Shown: positions 12,623 through 20,400 of the stretch, piece by piece | How the letters are laid out: each line of letters begins with the position of its first letter | Numbering within the stretch: position 1 is the first letter of the stretch | Notes under the pieces: model-generated | Databases searched by the model: none | Seen by the model: only the letters and a program-made list of their open reading frames with translations | What the model was told of the DNA's origin: nothing | DNA from: Bacilli bacterium | GTDB lineage: Bacteria > Bacillota_I > Bacilli_A > RFN20 > CAG-826 | Assembly (NCBI GenBank): GCA_017618495.1 | Contig: JAFZUD010000020.1 | Coordinates: forward strand, 1-30,429 | Length of the DNA stretch: 30,429 bases | Reading direction: 5' to 3' | Position numbers and translations under genes: made by a program

Positions 12623-13525
12623 ATGAAATTCTCGTCTTTCATGAAATTTGCTGGTTTCGGAATCAGCACAATTCTCTTTCGTAGGAAGAAACCTATTTTA
12701 GGAACGGTCATCGTCACCGATAAGTGCAACCTCCACTGCAAACACTGTTCCGTCAATAACATCACCGCGGTCATCCACCCATATGAGCAGATCAAAGGTG
12801 AGATGAAGCAGCTCTATGACATGGGCGTGCGCATCCTCTTTTTCTGTGGAGGCGAGACCTTCATGTGGAAGGACGGAGACAAGACCCTTAGAGACCTCGT
12901 CATCGAGGCGAAAAAGATGGGCTTCCTCATCGTTAACATAGTCACAAACGGTACCTGGCCAATCGATTTGCCAGAGGCGGACTTAATTTTATTAAGTCTT
13001 GATGGCGACAAAGTCCACCACAACATCATCAGAGGCGAGACTTACGACGCCATCTTCGAGAACATCTCCAAGGCCACCTCAGACAACATTTGTTTCTATA
13101 TGGCCGTCAATCAGATCAACAAGGATTGCATCCGTGACGTCTGCGAGAAAGCCCGCGACACCAAGAACGTCAGAGCGGTCTCTTTCAACTTCCACACCCC
13201 ATACCCAGACACCAAAGAACTCAAACTCACCAAAGAAGATAAAGCCAAATGCTGCGAGACCATAAAGCAGATGATGAAGGAAGGCTGCCCTGTCTTTAAC
13301 CTCAAGAGCGCATTCCCATATATCATCGAGAACAAATTCCCGACCCCATGCCACCAATGCGTCGTCATGGAGAACGGAAAGCTTTCCGTCTGCGGGCGTT
13401 GCATCGATGTCCCGGGCCTTTGTGATGAATGCGGCTACTTCTTCGTCGCCGAATATACCCTTCTCTTCAGGGGCAACTTGAAGATCATCTTCGAGATGCT
13501 TAAGACTTACCTGAAATACATCTAA
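12623..13525 (+). CDS. Radical SAM protein with Cys-rich C-terminal (SPASM/twitch-like) region; function unknown
   Basis: CNLHCKHC (CxxxCxxC), GGE motif, VTNGT, SLDG. C-terminal CHQC..CGRC..CDEC. Confidence 0.88.
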   Translation: MKFSSFMKFAGFGISTILFRRKKPILGTVIVTDKCNLHCKHCSVNNITAVIHPYEQIKGEMKQLYDMGVRILFFCGGETFMWKDGDKTLRDLVIEAKKMGFLIVNIVTNGTWPIDLPEADLILLSLDGDKVHHNIIRGETYDAIFENISKATSDNICFYMAVNQINKDCIRDVCEKARDTKNVRAVSFNFHTPYPDTKELKLTKEDKAKCCETIKQMMKEGCPVFNLKSAFPYIIENKFPTPCHQCVVMENGKLSVCGRCIDVPGLCDECGYFFVAEYTLLFRGNLKIIFEMLKTYLKYI

Positions 13526-13526
13526 A

Positions 13527-14780
13527 ATGAGCTTCCTTACATCACTTGCAAGATCCTGGCTCACAAGGTCACTCAAACCATTCACTTTCAAGAGCGATTA
13601 CGACCAGGTTCTCCCATATGAAAACCTAGACAATCTAGGTCTTTATGTTCACCTTCCTTTTTGCAAAAACATCTGCAATTTCTGTCCGTATTGCAAAAAA
13701 CTCTACTCAGAAGAGGAGAGCAATAGGTATATTGACGCCCTCATAAAAGAGATTCATTTAGTTGGTTCTCAAAGCAAAGAAAAGAAGAAGGTCACTAGCC
13801 TCTATTTCGGAGGCGGAACCCCTGCTTTGTCCGCGCCTAGAATCCACGAGATCATTGAGGCCATAAACGAGCACTTCATCATCACCGAAGGAATCGGTTT
13901 GGAGCTTCATCCGGATAACGTTAACAAAGAAACCCTTCAGACACTTAAAGATGCCGGGGTCACCAAGATCTCAATCGGCATCCAATCCTTCCGTTCCAAA
14001 TACCAGTCCATCTTAGGAAGAAAGACTGTGGACACCAAAGCCATGAAAGAGGCTTTAGAGGCCGTTCCTTTTGAAACGGTATCCATGGACTTCATCTTCG
14101 CTTTGCCTTCACAAACCTATGAAGACCTTGAAGCGGATGTCGATGAGGCTTTCGAACTTGGCGCCAACCACGTAGCCATTTATCCGTTCATCGACTTCAC
14201 CTTCACCTCTAGCAAAGTCAAAGCCCTCCCAAAGAAAGAGAAGAGAGAACTTCTTGATGCCATAACAAAGCATTGTCAGGAGAAAGGCTATCCTCGCAGC
14301 ACCATTTGGACCTTCTCAAGCAAGCCTGAGGCCAAATACTCGTCTATGACGAGAGAGACCTTCTTAGGCTTTGGTTGTTCTGCCACCACCCTTCTCAAAG
14401 ACCAGTTCAAGATCAACACGTTCGATGTTGATTCCTACATCAAGAGAATCGGAGAAGGGAAACTCCCAACTTCGTTGACAATCAGATTTAAGAAGAGACA
14501 AAGAATGGTCTATTGGCTCTTCTGGACCGCTTATAGCACAAGCGTGGATTCCAAAGACTTCGAGAAGTTCTTCGGCGTCTCCCTTAAGAAGAAGTATGGG
14601 TTTGAGTTATGGCTCGCTAAAAAGATTGGTTATATCACCGAGAAGGATGGTGTTTACACCATGACACTCAAGGGAGCGTTCTACTACCACTACTTCGAGA
14701 ACTTCTACACCCTCTCCTACATCGATAAGATGTGGGGCATTATGAGGAAAGAAGCTTTCCCGAAACAGATCAAACTATAG
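13527..14780 (+). CDS. HemN-like (class C) radical SAM protein; function unknown
   Basis: LYVHLPFCKNICNFCPYC, LYFGGGTP, KISIGIQSF, DFIFALP and FLGFGCSA. Starts 1 nt after the upstream stop. Confidence 0.85.
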   Translation: MSFLTSLARSWLTRSLKPFTFKSDYDQVLPYENLDNLGLYVHLPFCKNICNFCPYCKKLYSEEESNRYIDALIKEIHLVGSQSKEKKKVTSLYFGGGTPALSAPRIHEIIEAINEHFIITEGIGLELHPDNVNKETLQTLKDAGVTKISIGIQSFRSKYQSILGRKTVDTKAMKEALEAVPFETVSMDFIFALPSQTYEDLEADVDEAFELGANHVAIYPFIDFTFTSSKVKALPKKEKRELLDAITKHCQEKGYPRSTIWTFSSKPEAKYSSMTRETFLGFGCSATTLLKDQFKINTFDVDSYIKRIGEGKLPTSLTIRFKKRQRMVYWLFWTAYSTSVDSKDFEKFFGVSLKKKYGFELWLAKKIGYITEKDGVYTMTLKGAFYYHYFENFYTLSYIDKMWGIMRKEAFPKQIKL

Positions 14781-14782
14781 AA

Positions 14783-14813
14783 AAAAGAGGCGCGGAGTAA
14801 GGACGCCTCTTTT
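14783..14813. terminator. Bidirectional intrinsic terminator between the radical SAM pair and hsp20
   Basis: AAAAGAGGCG / CGCCTCTTTT perfect arms between convergent genes. Confidence 0.85.
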
Positions 14814-14868
14814 CCTTTATGGTCGACGAGAACTGTATGTAACAGCGTGAAAGGAGTAGCCGCTGTTT

Positions 14869-15276
14869 TTAGTTGATTGAGATGTTGTGAGCCAACTCTT
14901 TCTTCTCTTCTTCCTTAGGGAAGACGAGGGAGAGAACACCATTTTCGAATTTAGCGTTGATGCTCTTTTCGTTGGTCAGGCCAACATAGTAAGTCCTAGA
15001 AGCAGAACCATAGGTTCTCTCATGGCAAACGTATTTGCCTTTGGACTTCTCGTCCCTCTTATCTTCGCGCTTGGCGGAGATGGTTAAGTATCCATCTTTG
15101 AGGGTGACGTTGATGTCTTCTTTCTTAACGCCAGGAAGCTCTACATCCATCATGTAATGGGTTTCGTCTTCTTTGACATCCGTCTTCATGGAGATGGCGT
15201 GATTTTCTCTTCTGCTAACTGGAGCGAAGAAATCGTAGAATGGATCAAATCCGTAGTTGACTAAATCAAATGTCAT
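14869..15276 (-). CDS. Hsp20/alpha-crystallin small heat-shock protein
   Basis: MKTDVKE, VELPGVKKEDI, ERTYGSASR and AKFENGVLSLVFPK. AAGGAGGT RBS supports the start at 15276 (MTFDL). CIRCE sites upstream. Confidence 0.93.
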   Translation of the reverse strand: MTFDLVNYGFDPFYDFFAPVSRRENHAISMKTDVKEDETHYMMDVELPGVKKEDINVTLKDGYLTISAKREDKRDEKSKGKYVCHERTYGSASRTYYVGLTNEKSINAKFENGVLSLVFPKEEEKKELAHNISIN

Positions 15277-15299
15277 TGTAGTTACCTCCTTGGGATTTT

Positions 15300-15326
15300 T
15301 TAGCACTCATACTTCCTAAGTGCTAA
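15300..15326. promoter_or_regulatory. CIRCE element (HrcA operator), proximal copy
   Basis: TTAGCACTC-N9-AAGTGCTAA, one mismatch to the consensus TTAGCACTC-N9-GAGTGCTAA. Confidence 0.92.
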
Positions 15327-15330
15327 CTAT

Positions 15331-15358
15331 ATATTAGCCCTCTTTTTAGCACTGTCAA
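15331..15358 (-). promoter_or_regulatory. Sigma-A promoter for hsp20, TTGACA-N16-TAATAT
   Basis: Perfect TTGACA at 15353-15358 (minus strand), embedded in the distal CIRCE. Confidence 0.65.
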
Positions 15359-15372
15359 TAGGTAAGTGCTAA
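15346..15372. promoter_or_regulatory. CIRCE element, distal copy
   Basis: TTAGCACTG-N9-AAGTGCTAA, two mismatches to the consensus. Confidence 0.85.
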
Positions 15373-15376
15373 TTTT

Positions 15377-15763
15377 TTATGCGAAATTTTTTGCCCTCTC
15401 ATTCATGCGCGCGAACGCATTAAATAATAAAGATGATATCTGCTTTTCGTAGGCGCCAAAGTCGACTATGAAAAAATCGTTTTTAGTGTTTTCGCGAAAT
15501 AATTTTTCAACTTCGTAATTAATTTCTTTCACCATCTTCTCCGCACATACATCACAGATCTGTTGGTAGCGGCTCATGTCAAAACCCCAGCCGCTGATTA
15601 AGCCGGCTGTGTCTTTAAGGGTCTTGCAGAGTTTTTCTCTTAGAGCGGTCATCTTAAACTTCCCTTTGAACTGGGAAGAATAAGGATCAAGCCCATCGGA
15701 TATGAGCTTTGAGAAATAAGAAAGAACTTCGGTTTCGGTGTTTTGATAGATGTTGTTATTCAT
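15377..15763 (-). CDS. Hypothetical soluble protein, 128 aa
   Basis: Fills the intergenic gap. GGAGG RBS 5 nt before ATG 15763 (MNNNIYQ). No family recognised. Confidence 0.65.
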   Translation of the reverse strand: MNNNIYQNTETEVLSYFSKLISDGLDPYSSQFKGKFKMTALREKLCKTLKDTAGLISGWGFDMSRYQQICDVCAEKMVKEINYEVEKLFRENTKNDFFIVDFGAYEKQISSLLFNAFARMNERAKNFA

Positions 15764-15814
15764 AAGTGCCTCCACTTCTCATATAGAGGCATTTATGAAA
15801 ATGTTCACAAAAAA

Positions 15815-15834
15815 AGGACCGAAGAATCGGTCCT
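15815..15834 (-). terminator. Intrinsic terminator after the 152-aa membrane protein gene
   Basis: AGGACCGA/TCGGTCCT 8-bp stem with a 4-nt loop, followed by a T-tract on the minus strand. Confidence 0.85.
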
Positions 15835-15853
15835 AGATTTTGTTATTTGTTCC

Positions 15854-16312
15854 TTACTTAGCAAGGAAGGCTTTGACACCGATGAAGAGTTCGGTTCCAG
15901 CGGCAAGGAGAGAAGCAACCGCGGTAGCGATGAATCCCCAAGCAAGGGTGAGTTGGAACTGAGGAGCTTCGACCATGACTGGGGCAAGGAAGGCTAAGAT
16001 GCCGGCGACGGCCATGCAGAGGCCACCGACGATCGAAAGGAATCCGCCGAACTTTCCGCCATACCATCCGAAGGCGACTCCGAGAAGCTCGAAGGCAGCG
16101 CCAACGATGAAGAGAACGAACATGGCAACAAGTCCGCCAGTCGCGCTGATGGTGAATGGAGCAGCTGGGTTGGTGAAGACAAAGTCATAACCGCGAACGA
16201 ACTCATCCGCGCCAGCCTGGACGCCAGGGGCGATTGGGAAGAGGAACGCGCAAAGGGTGAAGATGAGGGCGACGATGCCAAGTAATCCACCTAAATTTGA
16301 AGTCTTTTTCAT
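15854..16312 (-). CDS. Hypothetical four-TM membrane protein
   Basis: 152 aa with four hydrophobic segments. Has its own promoter and terminator. Confidence 0.75.
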   Translation of the reverse strand: MKKTSNLGGLLGIVALIFTLCAFLFPIAPGVQAGADEFVRGYDFVFTNPAAPFTISATGGLVAMFVLFIVGAAFELLGVAFGWYGGKFGGFLSIVGGLCMAVAGILAFLAPVMVEAPQFQLTLAWGFIATAVASLLAAGTELFIGVKAFLAK

Positions 16313-16341
16313 ATAGTTAGTCCTTTACTAGAAACGAGTTA

Positions 16342-16370
16342 ATCTTACTAGCCTTGTAATCGTTGTTCAA
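16342..16370 (-). promoter_or_regulatory. Sigma-A promoter TTGAAC-N17-TAAGAT for the four-TM protein
   Basis: -35 at 16365-16370 and -10 at 16342-16347 on the minus strand, with exactly 17-nt spacing. Confidence 0.6.
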
Positions 16371-16391
16371 GGCTTCGTAATTGTTAAACAA

Positions 16392-17900
16392 TTATTTCAG
16401 GCCGTTTCTAATCTCTTTGAGCTTGGTTTGAAGCTCTTTTAATCCGAGGTTAAGCTCATTGGCTTCACCTGGTTTAAGATGACGAACCCTTTCGATCTGG
16501 GCCTCGATGGCTTTGGCCGCCAAGACCTTCGAATAGTTAGGGTTGTTGATGTTGGCATTAAGAATCTGATCCTGCCTTTGGGTCTCGGCAAAGCCGGAAC
16601 TGTGGCTGGCTGGTTTCTTTGGCGCCTCTTTCTTAGGGGCTGGCTTCTTAGCTGGCGCCGGCTTTTTGGTTTCGGCCGGTTTCGCTTTAGGAGCAGCCTT
16701 AGGGGCTGGCTTTTGTTTTGGCTCCGCTTTTGGTTTTGGAACCGCGACAGGTTTTGGTTTCAAAGAAGCGTAGAAGTCATTGTTCTTCTTTTCGAAGACA
16801 ATGGTCGCTCCCTTGATCTTGTATTCCTTGAGCATGTCGTGCTTAAGCTCGGACACATCTTTGTCGACCGCTTTAAGGTCTTTGGTGGTGACATCGTATT
16901 CACCATGGACCATGGCGACATATGCAACGTCCGGGTCTCTGAAGATCCAACCGTTATACTGGCCGAGCTTCTGAAGCGCGAAGCTTGGGGTCCTTCCGAT
17001 TCCGTAGAAGATCTTCGGGGTTTCGGCCTTTGGTTTTTCGGGCGCCTTTGGAGCAGGAGCGGCTGGCTTGGCTTTTGGAGCCGGGGCTAAGCGCTTCTTC
17101 TCCTCAAGAAGCTTCTCTTCTGGGTAACGGAGTTTGAGATTTGCTTTCTCGGCAGGCTTCATGGCCTTGAGAAGAGCAAGCTGTTTGTCGATATCCTCAA
17201 TCTTCCTTGGGGTTGGGTAATTAGGATTGCTGAGGTTCGCAGAAAGTGTGGAATCTGCTAAAACCACAGGGGATTTGTCAGTGATTTTTGGTTTTTCAGG
17301 GGCTTTTTGCTGGGCTTCCTGTTTGGTTTTGATTGGGGTTTTGTTGTTCGAAATTGGTCGAACGTTGTTTCTTGCTGGGGCGCGTTCTTGCGGCTTCTCG
17401 CCGTAGTTCACCTCTAAATCACCGTTTCTACTGATGCGGTAGACGTTGATGATTCTTCCCTTCTGGGATTCGAGGCTATTGAGACCACGGATGTCGTTTG
17501 TAAGTTTCTTGTCTTGGGTGATGATGAGAATCTTCTCGGCGATTCTCAGATCGGTGACCTTGGCAAAGATTGCTCTATCCGCAAAACCGTCTTTGTGGGT
17601 TGGTTTTGTGATCTCAATGGTTTTGCCATGGCGTTTATTGTCTTGCAGGATTTTCATGGCGAGTTTCGCTTCTACTAACTTATCGCCTTCCTTGCTCTTC
17701 GAATGCTTTTTGAGTTCTTCCATGCATTCGCCAAGAACAATAACTTTCAAACCGTCTTTCCAATATTCACGGGATTTGACTAAGCAATCCATGAACAAAG
17801 GGAACGAGTCTTCCATCAAGGAACAAGTATCCATGAACACTTTGTCGAAATTATTCAAAAATTTCGCAAGGTTCGAGGACTTGATTTCCTCGCTGTACAT
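16392..17900 (-). CDS. PIN-domain protein with Pro/Ala/Lys-rich linkers and a duplicated ~60-aa module
   Basis: N-terminal ~165 aa carry the PIN acidic quartet: FMDTCSL, MEELKKH, FADRAI and ITQDKKL. AAGGAGGT RBS. Confidence 0.72.
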   Translation of the reverse strand: MYSEEIKSSNLAKFLNNFDKVFMDTCSLMEDSFPLFMDCLVKSREYWKDGLKVIVLGECMEELKKHSKSKEGDKLVEAKLAMKILQDNKRHGKTIEITKPTHKDGFADRAIFAKVTDLRIAEKILIITQDKKLTNDIRGLNSLESQKGRIINVYRISRNGDLEVNYGEKPQERAPARNNVRPISNNKTPIKTKQEAQQKAPEKPKITDKSPVVLADSTLSANLSNPNYPTPRKIEDIDKQLALLKAMKPAEKANLKLRYPEEKLLEEKKRLAPAPKAKPAAPAPKAPEKPKAETPKIFYGIGRTPSFALQKLGQYNGWIFRDPDVAYVAMVHGEYDVTTKDLKAVDKDVSELKHDMLKEYKIKGATIVFEKKNNDFYASLKPKPVAVPKPKAEPKQKPAPKAAPKAKPAETKKPAPAKKPAPKKEAPKKPASHSSGFAETQRQDQILNANINNPNYSKVLAAKAIEAQIERVRHLKPGEANELNLGLKELQTKLKEIRNGLK

Positions 17901-17962
17901 TAAAAGTACCTCCTTATGAGTTAATTCTACTATATTTAGAACCTATTGGTTCCTAGAGTTTT

Positions 17963-18913
17963 CTAAGCGATGAAAAGGGCGGCTGCGCCGACAACGCCGG
18001 CATCGCTGCCTAGAGCGGAGACGAGAACCTTAACTTCTGGGGTTCTCTTAAAGCCATAGTCTTTGGCCGCGAGTTTCTTCTCAACGGCATCAGTCAAGTA
18101 TTTGCGCTGATTGGAAAGACCGCCGCTGAGGATGACGGCCTCTGGGCGGAAGATATTGCAGAAGTTGATGATTCCCAAGGTGAGATATTCCTCATAATCA
18201 TCAACGACTTTCAAAGCGGTCTTGTCGCCTTTCTTGGCACATTCGAATGAGGTGCGGCCATCAACTTTCTTGATGTCGCCTTTGACGAAGTCCCACATCT
18301 TGGAATCTTTGTCTTTCTTCATGGCTTTTTTGGTGTCGTTGATGAGAGCAGTAACTGAAGCATATGCTTCAAGGCATCCTTTGAGTCCGCAGGTACACTG
18401 ACGTCCGCCTCTTTCAATGACCATGTGGCCGAGCTCGGTTCCTTTGCCTTCGTTGCCTTCATAGAGTTTTCCATCAAGGAAAAGCCCACCGCCGACACCG
18501 GTTCCAAGGGTAAGAAGAACAAGGTTGTTATATTGTTTGCCAACACCGAACTTGGCTTCGCCAAGCATGGCGGCATTAGCGTCGTTGGTCACTTTTGTCG
18601 GAAGCCCCGTGGCCTGACGGATCATCTCAGCGACTGGAGCATTGTTCCAACCAAGGTTTCCGGAGAAGCAGCAAACACCGCTTCTGCTGTTGATCGAGCC
18701 TGGGCAACCTATGCCGATTCCACCGACTTCAAAGCCTTCGGCTTCCACGGCTTTCACGTTTGTGCTGATCAAATCACCAAGCTGGGTGAGAGTGGCCTCT
18801 TGCTTGGCTCCTTTGATGAATTTCATCGTAAAACGATGGCTGATTGTGCCTTCTTCATTAACGAACGCGCACTTTATGGACGTTCCACCAATATCAATTC
18901 CTAAATATAGCAT
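17963..18913 (-). CDS. ROK-family sugar kinase (glucokinase-like)
   Basis: LGIDIGGT, NDANAAMLGE, TLGTGVGGG, ELGHM and the Zn motif CTCGLKGCLEAYAS. Confidence 0.93.
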   Translation of the reverse strand: MLYLGIDIGGTSIKCAFVNEEGTISHRFTMKFIKGAKQEATLTQLGDLISTNVKAVEAEGFEVGGIGIGCPGSINSRSGVCCFSGNLGWNNAPVAEMIRQATGLPTKVTNDANAAMLGEAKFGVGKQYNNLVLLTLGTGVGGGLFLDGKLYEGNEGKGTELGHMVIERGGRQCTCGLKGCLEAYASVTALINDTKKAMKKDKDSKMWDFVKGDIKKVDGRTSFECAKKGDKTALKVVDDYEEYLTLGIINFCNIFRPEAVILSGGLSNQRKYLTDAVEKKLAAKDYGFKRTPEVKVLVSALGSDAGVVGAAALFIA

Positions 18914-18959
18914 GGTAGATATTCTCTCTCATTTGCCCAAAAGAATAAAGAAGCTTGCT

Positions 18960-19475
18960 CTACATCTCCTCGATGGTGTCTTCCAGAGACTTTCTATCGG
19001 TATGCCTTGGTGAAGGCTGTGACTCTGCGGTTGGATAGCCAATCGCAAGCATCATTGCAGGTTTGATGTTTTCAGGAAGTTCGAAGGCTTCTGCAACGAG
19101 CTTCGAGTTGAAACCTCTAATCCAAAGGCTATGAATTCCGAGGTCTTCCGCTTCATACATCATTGAGGTCAAAACGGAACTGGCGTCTTGTTCTCCTGAG
19201 TTATAGCCTTCTTCGCGAGCGTTCTTCCAAACGACATTAGTGTCGTAACAGATCAAAAGAACGATTGGGGCGTTATATGTATGGGTAAGTTTTGCCGCTT
19301 TCCAAAGAGCGTCTTCGCTTTTGATGACGTAAATCTTTTGCGGCTGGAAGTTACAAGCGGTTGGGGCAACCCTTCCCGCTTCAAGGATTTTCGAGAGCTT
19401 TTCTTCCTCAATTGGACGAGACTTATCAAAGCTTCTTTCCGAATACCTTTTCTTCGCTAATTCCAAGAATTCCAT
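18960..19475 (-). CDS. Nitroreductase-family FMN oxidoreductase
   Basis: RYSERSF, APTACNFQP, LGIHSLWI and LAIGYP. AGGAGG RBS 7 nt before ATG 19475. Confidence 0.9.
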   Translation of the reverse strand: MEFLELAKKRYSERSFDKSRPIEEEKLSKILEAGRVAPTACNFQPQKIYVIKSEDALWKAAKLTHTYNAPIVLLICYDTNVVWKNAREEGYNSGEQDASSVLTSMMYEAEDLGIHSLWIRGFNSKLVAEAFELPENIKPAMMLAIGYPTAESQPSPRHTDRKSLEDTIEEM

Positions 19476-19641
19476 AATCAACCCTCCTTCTGGTTAACTG
19501 GATATCTTTTTATTTATAAAAGCTTCCGAAAATATAATGTCATTAATGTTCCTTTAGTACAATCCGAATTGCTCCTTTGGCCGATTCATCTAACGAAATT
19601 TTATGTTGGAGTGAGGTGGTTGCTGTTATATACTTTGCCAC

Positions 19642-20400
19642 GTGAAAAACGAAAGCCAGAAAAAATCGAATATCGGATTCATCATCGCTCTTCTTTTGAC
19701 GTGCGCTGGCGGGTTCCTTGAGGCTTATTCCCTCTACTACCGTGGTTTTTGGGGAATGATGATGACGGGCAACCTTGTTTATGGCGTTGTCAGCATCATT
19801 GAGGGAGAGCCAGTCAAACTTCTCACTTATATACCGGCGATCGTTCTTTTTGCGGTCGGCGTTTTCCTTGCCAGGCTTATCGAAGATAAGATTGCCAAAG
19901 AAGACGAAAGGAAATACCACATCATCGAACTTTCAGTGATCGTTGGTCTTCTTGTTGTTGTCATGGCCATACCAACCGTTGTTGACCCAACAGCTAATCC
20001 TCCGTCCCCGGACAAATTCGCCTGGCCAAACATAATCTCAAATTGCCTTATCGCTATAATCGGAGGCTTCTTAACCAAAAGCTTTGCTTCCTTTGATGAA
20101 CAGCCATACACGGCGACTATGATGACTGCGAACATGGGCCGTTTAGCTATATCGACTTATGGTGCGATATTCGGGGAAGACAAAAAGAAAGGGCGCATGT
20201 CTGCTTTTAAATACGCCGCAATCATTCTTTTGTTCGCTATTTCCGCTGCCGGTTGTTTTGCTTTCTATTATTTTGTTTATCCAAGCCTAAGCGGAGACGT
20301 CGTAATCTCCTACTTCCCTAACCTTACTTTGCTTTTGCCTTTGGCAACAATCGTGACTTCGTTGGTCCTTTTTGTCACAAGCAAAGCCGAAAAAGCTTAA
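19642..20400 (+). CDS. YoaK/DUF1275-family membrane protein
   Basis: GGFLEAYS...MMTGNL and TATMMTANM repeats match the DUF1275 pattern; multi-TM. GTG start preceded by TATACT (19629-19634) at 7 nt. Confidence 0.8.
   Translation: MKNESQKKSNIGFIIALLLTCAGGFLEAYSLYYRGFWGMMMTGNLVYGVVSIIEGEPVKLLTYIPAIVLFAVGVFLARLIEDKIAKEDERKYHIIELSVIVGLLVVVMAIPTVVDPTANPPSPDKFAWPNIISNCLIAIIGGFLTKSFASFDEQPYTATMMTANMGRLAISTYGAIFGEDKKKGRMSAFKYAAIILLFAISAAGCFAFYYFVYPSLSGDVVISYFPNLTLLLPLATIVTSLVLFVTSKAEKA

Follow-up and report, generated by a model that had tools for sequence, protein, structure and literature searches.

What does a PIN-domain nuclease do when no antitoxin gene adjoins its own, and when it is joined to small domains that sequence libraries fail to match? 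To our knowledge, the targeting and restraint of antitoxin-free PIN enzymes in bacteria are poorly understood. The question is raised here by a gene in a stretch of DNA of 30,429 nucleotides (nt) from a Bacilli bacterium (contig JAFZUD010000020.1 of assembly GCA_017618495.1), referred to throughout, at its full length, as ‘the window’. The gene encodes a protein of 502 amino acids (aa) belonging to a family, PIN-NPNY, that we define by the order of its parts: a PIN domain, a first helical module of the ‘NPNY’ kind (module A), an alpha/beta middle domain, and a second such module (module B). The window protein has all four parts in this order, as judged from an alignment of 29 family representatives, a structural model and sequence profiles. 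The enzyme is restricted to two genera of gut and rumen Bacilli that have reduced genomes and are of the RFN20/CAG-826 type. We tentatively favour the reading that it is a vertically inherited, lineage-specific housekeeping endoribonuclease, which its tethered modules would dock to an RNA or ribonucleoprotein (RNP) partner.

The architecture can be read from a full-length AlphaFold2 model, built with the alignment of the 29 representatives. Four segments are modelled with confidence (predicted local distance difference test, pLDDT, about 70–96 by block): aa 1–170, an alternation of strands and helices; aa 210–272 and 436–501, both helical; and aa 298–381, which combines alpha and beta structure. 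Three linkers (aa 173–206, 276–281 and 385–422) have pLDDT values below 50 and are predicted to be disordered. An earlier note on this DNA, made from its letters alone, had described a PIN domain with all four of its acidic residues, a module present twice, a globular domain distinct from these, and linkers between them; every one of these segments appears in the model where the note had placed it. The start of the coding sequence is secure, since a strong ribosome-binding site precedes the ATG and the N-terminus MYSEE is kept in every homolog. The protein is strongly basic (pI 9.7, net charge +34), and since its maximal 19-residue hydropathy is only 1.15, it should be cytoplasmic, with no transmembrane (TM) or signal segment. 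Searches of Pfam, NCBIfam, PADLOC, PHROGs and the PDB sequences with the whole window protein returned matches to the low-complexity linkers only. Neither the module nor the middle domain matches any family in Pfam, NCBIfam, PHROGs or PADLOC, so that the module is unrecognized, as had been supposed, and the middle domain is likewise undescribed. A literature search found no paper that uses ‘NPNY’ in the sense of this module.

The N-terminal domain has the fold of the PIN superfamily—three-layer alpha/beta/alpha, with a central parallel sheet—in both the model and structural comparison. When the model was compared with the PDB by Foldseek, places 1–11 were all taken by PIN domains (target TM-score 0.5–0.67, probability 0.99–1.00), among them AF0591 (1o4w, the best structural match), 3ix7, SMG6/EST1A, an archaeal PIN-ATPase and 3i8o. 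The four acidic residues of the superfamily are present (D24, E62, D108 and D130) and are invariant across 34 diverse homologs; a fifth, D136, is nearly so. This is the canonical site that the PIN classification paper tabulates for SMG6 and Nob1, the same paper classing 1o4w as ‘PIN_9, COG1412, Fcf1-like, function unknown’ (PMC5499597). Sequence comparison points in two neighbouring directions. The hidden Markov model (HMM) PF13638 (PIN_4) matches 12 of the 29 homologs (best E 5e-6); with the window protein it gives no match at E<=1, and it finds none in a six-frame search of the genome. A PIN-only profile, run against the PDB sequences, places Fcf1 and Utp24 at the top, weakly (E 0.06–0.08), and in this same weak alignment ELxK, FADxxI and ITQDKxL fall on the corresponding motifs of Utp24/Fcf1. 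PF04900 (Fcf1) is matched by none of the 29 members; JGI, and JGI only, names many of the homologs FCF1 (= COG1412). By model and profile, we assign the domain to the VapC-like group of PIN domains, where it stands between the subgroups COG1412 and PIN_4. Given its canonical four-acid site, its fold and this subgroup placement, the domain is probably catalytically competent, and we infer that it acts as an RNase, with RNA rather than DNA as its substrate.

The two modules share the pattern D-x-x-L-x-A-N-L-x-N-P-N-Y-P-x-x-x-K-x-x-D-I-x-x-Q, after which come spaced leucines. The model shows helices 1 and 2 joined by the NPNY turn, with one or more helices after them. Copies of the module align without gaps over 62 positions (33 copies from 17 proteins), and both copies are conserved family-wide, with the N..Y turn invariant. 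That they are a true internal repeat is clear from local alignment of aa ~215–270 with aa ~443–500, which scores 80; shuffled sequences score 25.3 +/- 4.7, and none of 2000 reached 80. The window’s copies are only 27% identical in amino acids and 39% in DNA, and in a tree of module copies all A and all B copies fall into two clades with support of 99/100. Since A and B separate in this way, the duplication must be older than the radiation of the family; it is ancient, as the earlier note had claimed from the divergence of the DNA.

The middle domain, the globular part that stands between the modules, also folds confidently on its own (pLDDT 94, predicted TM-score 0.84, with 33 sequences). It carries a conserved set of polar residues: R321, D322, H332, G333, D336, T338 and D341. 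Foldseek found nothing significant for it, the best matches having E 0.12 in the PDB and 0.05 in BFVD; the weak matches scatter over Roadblock/longin/LAMTOR and PAS-GAF folds. The linkers differ among themselves in composition. Linker 1 is 41% Pro+Ala+Lys, and so less rich in these residues than linkers 2 and 3. Linker lengths vary widely across the family, whose members range from 486 to 726 aa. In many homologs linker 3 is longer, and contains an extra short motif, (A/V)-P-x-G-x-x-L-x-V-G-x-P, present in at least 29 of 69 full-length homologs (among loci L021–L085), often with IERRxRRED next to it. This motif resembles an embedded linear motif; it is absent from the window protein, having been lost by the window’s subclade.

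The distribution of the gene is that of a core gene of a small lineage. The window’s genome (an assembly of 1.11 Mb, 92% complete) has one copy, and the gene is present in 23 of the 24 genomes of its genus, once per genome. It was not found in 16 genomes from seven other families of the order. A whole-protein profile has matches in only two of the 48 genera of the taxonomic family, and the PIN-only and middle-domain profiles return the same two genera, and no others, of the 179 genera sampled in the class (6/6 and 2/2), each of them matching this gene alone. Among 1.84 billion representative proteins, the module profile matched 124; nearly all of these are two-module proteins built in the same way, or fragments of such proteins, and most are 450–750 aa long with two matches. 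The search for other architectures that the earlier note had called for yielded, in sum, the family itself, fragments, probable chimeras and two singletons with a TIR-type layout, to which we return below. The chimeras—P0187 (porin-PIN), P0223 (half of a large terminase joined to a module) and P0194 (an acyltransferase fragment)—lie on short contigs and are most likely products of assembly or gene calling. When one genome from each of 185,579 species was scanned with a pattern, 74 loci were found, all of them in metagenome-assembled genomes (MAGs) of uncultured organisms from rumen, horse, human gut or similar sources. The MAGs are labelled ‘Bacilli bacterium’, ‘Mollicutes’ or ‘Erysipelotrichaceae’, or plainly wrongly; one of the 74, ‘Candidatus Enteromonas’, has been assigned to order RFN20, family CAG-826 (PMC8035907). 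Many public bins with the gene bear the names of unrelated species as titles, among them Escherichia coli, Alistipes communis, Roseburia hominis and Bacteroides uniformis. These oddly titled loci include L029, L031, L033, L038, L047, L049, L050, L059 and L073 (accessions CAV...), and the taxonomy labels of this batch of MAGs look unreliable.

Ratios of nonsynonymous to synonymous substitution (dN/dS), computed against close orthologs, show that the gene is under purifying selection, with dN/dS ~0.1. The whole gene has values of 0.11–0.15, both modules 0.05–0.10, the middle domain 0.09–0.12, and the PIN domain 0.09–0.29; linker 1 is the fastest-evolving part (0.4–0.8) and is relaxed. Nucleotide identity to two close relatives (loci L013 and L015) is a mosaic across positions 13000–20400 of the window: 73–80% at 18800–20400, 97–99% over the PIN region, 74% over the middle domain and linker 3 (16601–17000), and 90–96% again downstream. 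Inside the gene, dS ranges from 0.05 to 1.5. This mosaic suggests that homologous recombination between related species is frequent. We considered whether the divergent middle segment is under positive selection and rejected the idea: despite the high dS of this segment, its dN/dS remains close to 0.1, and the whole neighbourhood is a recombination mosaic.

The surroundings of the gene are unremarkable, consisting of ordinary chromosomal or housekeeping genes rather than defence or mobile ones. Upstream, across a gap of 62 nt, lies a gene for a 316-aa ROK kinase. No antitoxin-like or antitoxin-sized gene adjoins upstream among the open reading frames (ORFs) of the window, as had been noted before. 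Downstream lies a gene for a small protein with four TM segments (‘four-TM’), probably co-transcribed with the PIN-NPNY gene, and a hairpin with a T-run probably ends the transcription unit (Table). The four-TM gene is narrow in range, being found in the window’s genus (3/3) and hardly at all in the 47 other genera of the family; in one genome it lies 28 kb from the PIN-NPNY gene. It is possible, though unproven, that its product is an associate of the PIN-NPNY protein. Farther off are genes for Hsp20, two radical-SAM proteins, a nitroreductase, a RumA-type methyltransferase and MetRS. Of the 74 loci, 35 have Hsp20 downstream on the same strand, 20 have the four-TM protein there, and 13 have the ROK kinase upstream. 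This pattern, together with the change of the adjacent gene from one subclade to another (described below), points to a region that is inherited vertically and rearranges slowly, not to a fixed operon. Two further ORFs may be recorded, the first in the window and the second near the gene in other loci. One, of 132 aa and with no Pfam match, stands between the four-TM gene and Hsp20 (15377–15775, minus strand) and is conserved in 10 of the 74 related loci at 40–100% identity. The other encodes a protein of ~518 aa that has a single TM segment, at its N-terminus, and matches nothing in Pfam; it occurs near the PIN-NPNY gene in 26 of the 74 loci. It abuts the gene on the same strand in some loci (it is immediately downstream in L036, L038, L042, L044, L046, L053 and L065) and is convergent, 2–4 kb off, in others; unlinked paralogs of it are present in the window’s genome (G000:C166:21-1310 and G000:C1:3644-4528).

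Table. Features of the PIN-NPNY gene and its immediate surroundings, in coordinates of the window
Feature	Position	Strand	Basis or remark
Coding sequence of PIN-NPNY protein (P0001), complete, 502 aa + stop	16392..17900	-	ORF read from sequence
Ribosome-binding site AAGGAGG, 8 nt 5' of ATG	17909-17915	-	read from sequence
PIN domain, aa 1-170, Fcf1/PIN_4-like, conserved N-terminal helix in front	17391..17900	-	Foldseek, HMM, profile
D24 codon (DTCS motif), end of strand 1, first acidic residue	17829..17831	-	invariant; model
E62 codon (ELKK), helix after strand 2, second acidic residue	17715..17717	-	invariant; aligns with Glu of Utp24 AELEKL
D108 codon (FAD), start of helix after strand 3, third acidic residue	17577..17579	-	invariant; aligns with Utp24/Fcf1 YADD
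D130 codon (TQD), end of strand 4, fourth acidic residue	17511..17513	-	invariant; aligns with Utp24 TND
D136 codon, nearly invariant fifth acidic residue	17493-17495	-	homolog alignment
Linker 1, aa 171-209, disordered, basic, net +6	17274..17390	-	pLDDT <50, dN/dS, composition
NPNY module copy A, aa 210-272: helix, NPNY turn, helices	17085..17273	-	profile, E 2e-24
Linker 2, aa 273-295, 87% Pro+Ala+Lys	17016..17084	-	AlphaFold2 and composition
Middle alpha/beta domain, aa 296-381, ~86 aa	16758..17015	-	stand-alone model, conservation
Linker 3, aa 382-435, 80% Pro+Ala+Lys, net +13	16596..16757	-	AlphaFold2 and composition
NPNY module copy B, aa 436-502, C-terminal	16395..16595	-	profile, E 1.5e-21
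Four-TM protein, 152 aa, downstream, no Pfam match	15854..16312	-	79-nt gap, no terminator between
Intrinsic terminator-like hairpin and T-run, end of probable transcription unit	15815..15834	-	

How might such a protein work? In the mechanism we favour, it would be a cytoplasmic, metal-dependent PIN endoribonuclease, nearest to the COG1412/Fcf1-like and PIN_4/SMG6-like subgroups, with a catalytic domain that would not be under antitoxin control. Long, basic, disordered linkers, mostly rich in Pro, Ala and Lys, would tether this domain to three docking units, namely the two paralogous three-helix NPNY modules and the alpha/beta domain with its conserved polar patch. These units would bind a conserved cellular partner, most plausibly an RNP (the ribosome or a precursor RNP), and the cationic linkers would lend non-specific affinity for RNA, as well as reach. 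Docking would thereby limit cleavage to RNA near the docking site, in the service of RNA processing, decay or quality control. An RNP seems the likeliest partner because of the protein’s charge and because its nearest relatives among PIN domains have roles in rRNA and mRNA surveillance. We infer both the docking role of the modules and the housekeeping role of the enzyme. On balance, a core gene passed on vertically fits the evidence better than a mobile defence gene does, given the near-universal occurrence in the genus in single copy, the housekeeping neighbours, the dN/dS of about 0.1 and the lack of a PADLOC match. The earlier note had proposed an RNase with basic tethers and two unrecognized modules, serving either as a scaffolded decay enzyme or as a defence sensor. 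The structural part of that proposal is borne out; on the functional side, no partner that would make up a scaffold was found and no match in PADLOC speaks for defence, though one lead, the TIR-bearing architecture described below, does agree with a defence role.

Several observations weigh against the housekeeping reading. Sister genera live without the PIN-NPNY protein, so it is not generally essential. The window protein itself reaches no Pfam threshold. We found no partner for it, and the gene that adjoins it downstream differs between subclades: it may encode the four-TM protein, the ~518-aa one-TM protein (a multi-copy family), a YbaK-type editing domain, a dUTPase or a solute-binding protein. 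The search for a conserved operon partner thus yielded none that is family-wide. Nor is there an obvious vacant role for another RNase, since the genome has RNase Y, two RNase J paralogs, RNase III, RNase M5 and YbeY. Mini-III is the one enzyme not detected, and almost every genome of the taxonomic family lacks it. The idea that PIN-NPNY replaces a missing standard RNase is rejected, because Mini-III is absent with or without the PIN-NPNY gene and the two show no complementary pattern. Almost throughout the family, there is a single gene of the RNase III family (PF00636) per genome (in the window’s genome, G000, and 100 others), from which it appears that Mini-III is generally missing from the lineage. 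Finally, in the sole convincing alternative architecture of the module, the place of the PIN domain is taken by a TIR domain. In P0233 (L089:174-1343), a TIR domain (TIR_2, E 4e-12) is followed by a Pro/Lys linker, one module, a second Pro/Lys linker and a beta-rich C-terminal domain. P0232 has the same layout with a divergent N-terminal domain, and is homologous to P0233 over the module and C-terminal domain (E 1e-12).

It is these TIR-bearing proteins that lend most to the main rival, a chromosomally fixed anti-phage or conflict effector. In it, the modules, the middle domain, or both would sense a signal or protein derived from an invader and release the PIN domain to degrade RNA, leading to abortive infection. 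TIR is a typical immune effector, and effector swapping of the PIN/TIR kind is typical of immune proteins. A solitary, antitoxin-free nuclease with sensor-like accessory domains would suit such a role, as would the trough in nucleotide identity over the middle domain and linker 3 (74%, against 86–99% in the flanks). The PIN-NPNY gene, however, is near-universal, single-copy and syntenic in its genus, whereas defence genes are patchy and linked to islands; its neighbours include no defence or mobile genes, PADLOC offers no match, and even the middle domain has dN/dS of about 0.1. The TIR-module family, moreover, amounts to two singleton sequences (a search from P0233 returned TIR matches only), one of which, P0233, lies on a 3.3-kb contig just upstream of rplU-prp-rpmA, beside ribosomal protein genes. 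We regard this explanation as rather unlikely. Distinctly unlikely, in our judgement, is a more novel reading, in which the NPNY module would be an unrecognized docking or sensor domain that serves alternative heads (PIN or TIR), and PIN-NPNY a fixed, bivalently tethered immune or quality-control RNase, switched on once its two modules and middle domain engage a specific target, for instance an RNP that is stalled or foreign. If this is true, uncultured gut Bacilli would possess a new type of effector–sensor architecture.

The charge of the protein invites a different thought, that the nuclease is directed at DNA or the nucleoid. The linkers would then resemble histone H1-type or HU-tail repeats, and flaps or structured DNA would be the substrate of the PIN domain. 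Several bacterial nucleoid proteins bind DNA through K/P/A-rich repeats, the net charge is +34, and T4 RNase H and T5 5'-exonuclease do appear, as weak matches, far down the Foldseek list. But these FEN-like matches have E 0.2–0.7 and TM-scores below 0.3, and the helical arch and H3TH of FEN-type enzymes are not evident in the secondary structure of the model. The best structural and sequence neighbours (COG1412/Fcf1-like proteins, SMG6 and Utp24) are RNases, and we judge a role on DNA to be quite improbable. PIN domains are the commonest toxins of toxin–antitoxin systems (PMC5499597), and the protein might, on that precedent, be a solitary VapC-like toxin whose antitoxin has gone unrecognized: either the four-TM protein, whose small, probably co-transcribed gene is similarly narrow in range, or an inhibitory module within the protein itself. 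Against this, no gene for a DNA-binding antitoxin stands upstream, the protein is 3–4 times the size of VapC and has the distribution of a core gene, and the four-TM gene is nearby in only 20 of the 74 loci and 28 kb off in one genome, making this highly improbable. There is only the slimmest chance that PIN-NPNY is a catalytically silent RNA-binding or scaffold protein that uses its PIN fold for binding alone, in the manner of the inactive PIN binders Utp23 and SMG5 (PMC5499597), for inactive PINs have lost the acidic residues that are here, the fifth included, invariant or nearly so.

The family offers a clean case: an apparently active PIN domain wired by cationic tethers to three small domains that libraries do not match. 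If these modules dock to the ribosome or another RNP, they would represent a new bacterial solution to the problem of RNase targeting; if they are sensors, as the TIR-bearing relative hints, they would represent a new immune architecture. Either way, family databases gain two new small domains, and lineage-specific RNA metabolism of the RFN20/CAG-826 group gains a candidate that can be tested.

PIN-NPNY shares features with several known systems and differs from each. It resembles the COG1412/PIN_9 and Fcf1–Utp24 proteins, which include its best structural match, 1o4w, share its four conserved acids, and have E, D and D motifs that align with its own, weakly; sequence similarity is, however, below significance (E about 0.06). 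These proteins are archaeal or eukaryotic, are single-domain proteins or processome subunits, and lack the NPNY modules, the middle domain and the Pro/Ala/Lys linkers. The PIN_4 proteins (PF13638; SMG6/EST1A and the bacterial PhoH2/YlaK) have the same four-acid layout, and SMG6/EST1A is among the top Foldseek matches. PIN-NPNY, unlike them, has no PhoH ATPase, TRAM or 14-3-3-like domain, its accessory domains being its own; apart from a marginal UPF0004, no Pfam family beyond PIN_4 was found in the 29 members, which sets them apart from PhoH2/YlaK and from YacL. VapC toxins have the same class of fold and the same acidic active site, but PIN-NPNY is a multi-domain protein of 502 aa, compared with about 130–150, has no antitoxin gene, and is distributed as a core gene. 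VapBC organization is likewise absent: the upstream neighbour is the ROK kinase, and the downstream four-TM protein is not kept family-wide. RNase Y and the C-terminal half of RNase E resemble PIN-NPNY in another way, in that they, too, combine a catalytic domain with long, flexible, charged segments and docking elements, and the Pro/Ala/Lys hinges of the E2 components of 2-oxo-acid dehydrogenases are the sole matches of the whole protein among PDB sequences. Beyond low complexity, these disordered scaffolds have no homology to PIN-NPNY, and RNase Y is encoded separately in the genome. A comparison with PADLOC-DB matched no defence family at all at E<=1. The TIR-NPNY proteins P0233 and P0232 share the NPNY-type module, which is flanked by Pro/Lys-rich linkers; these differ in having a TIR (or divergent) head, one module rather than two, and a beta-rich C-terminal domain in place of the alpha/beta middle domain. 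By fold and active site, the nuclease of PIN-NPNY belongs to a known class, and it is the accessory module and the middle domain that appear new to the sequence libraries.

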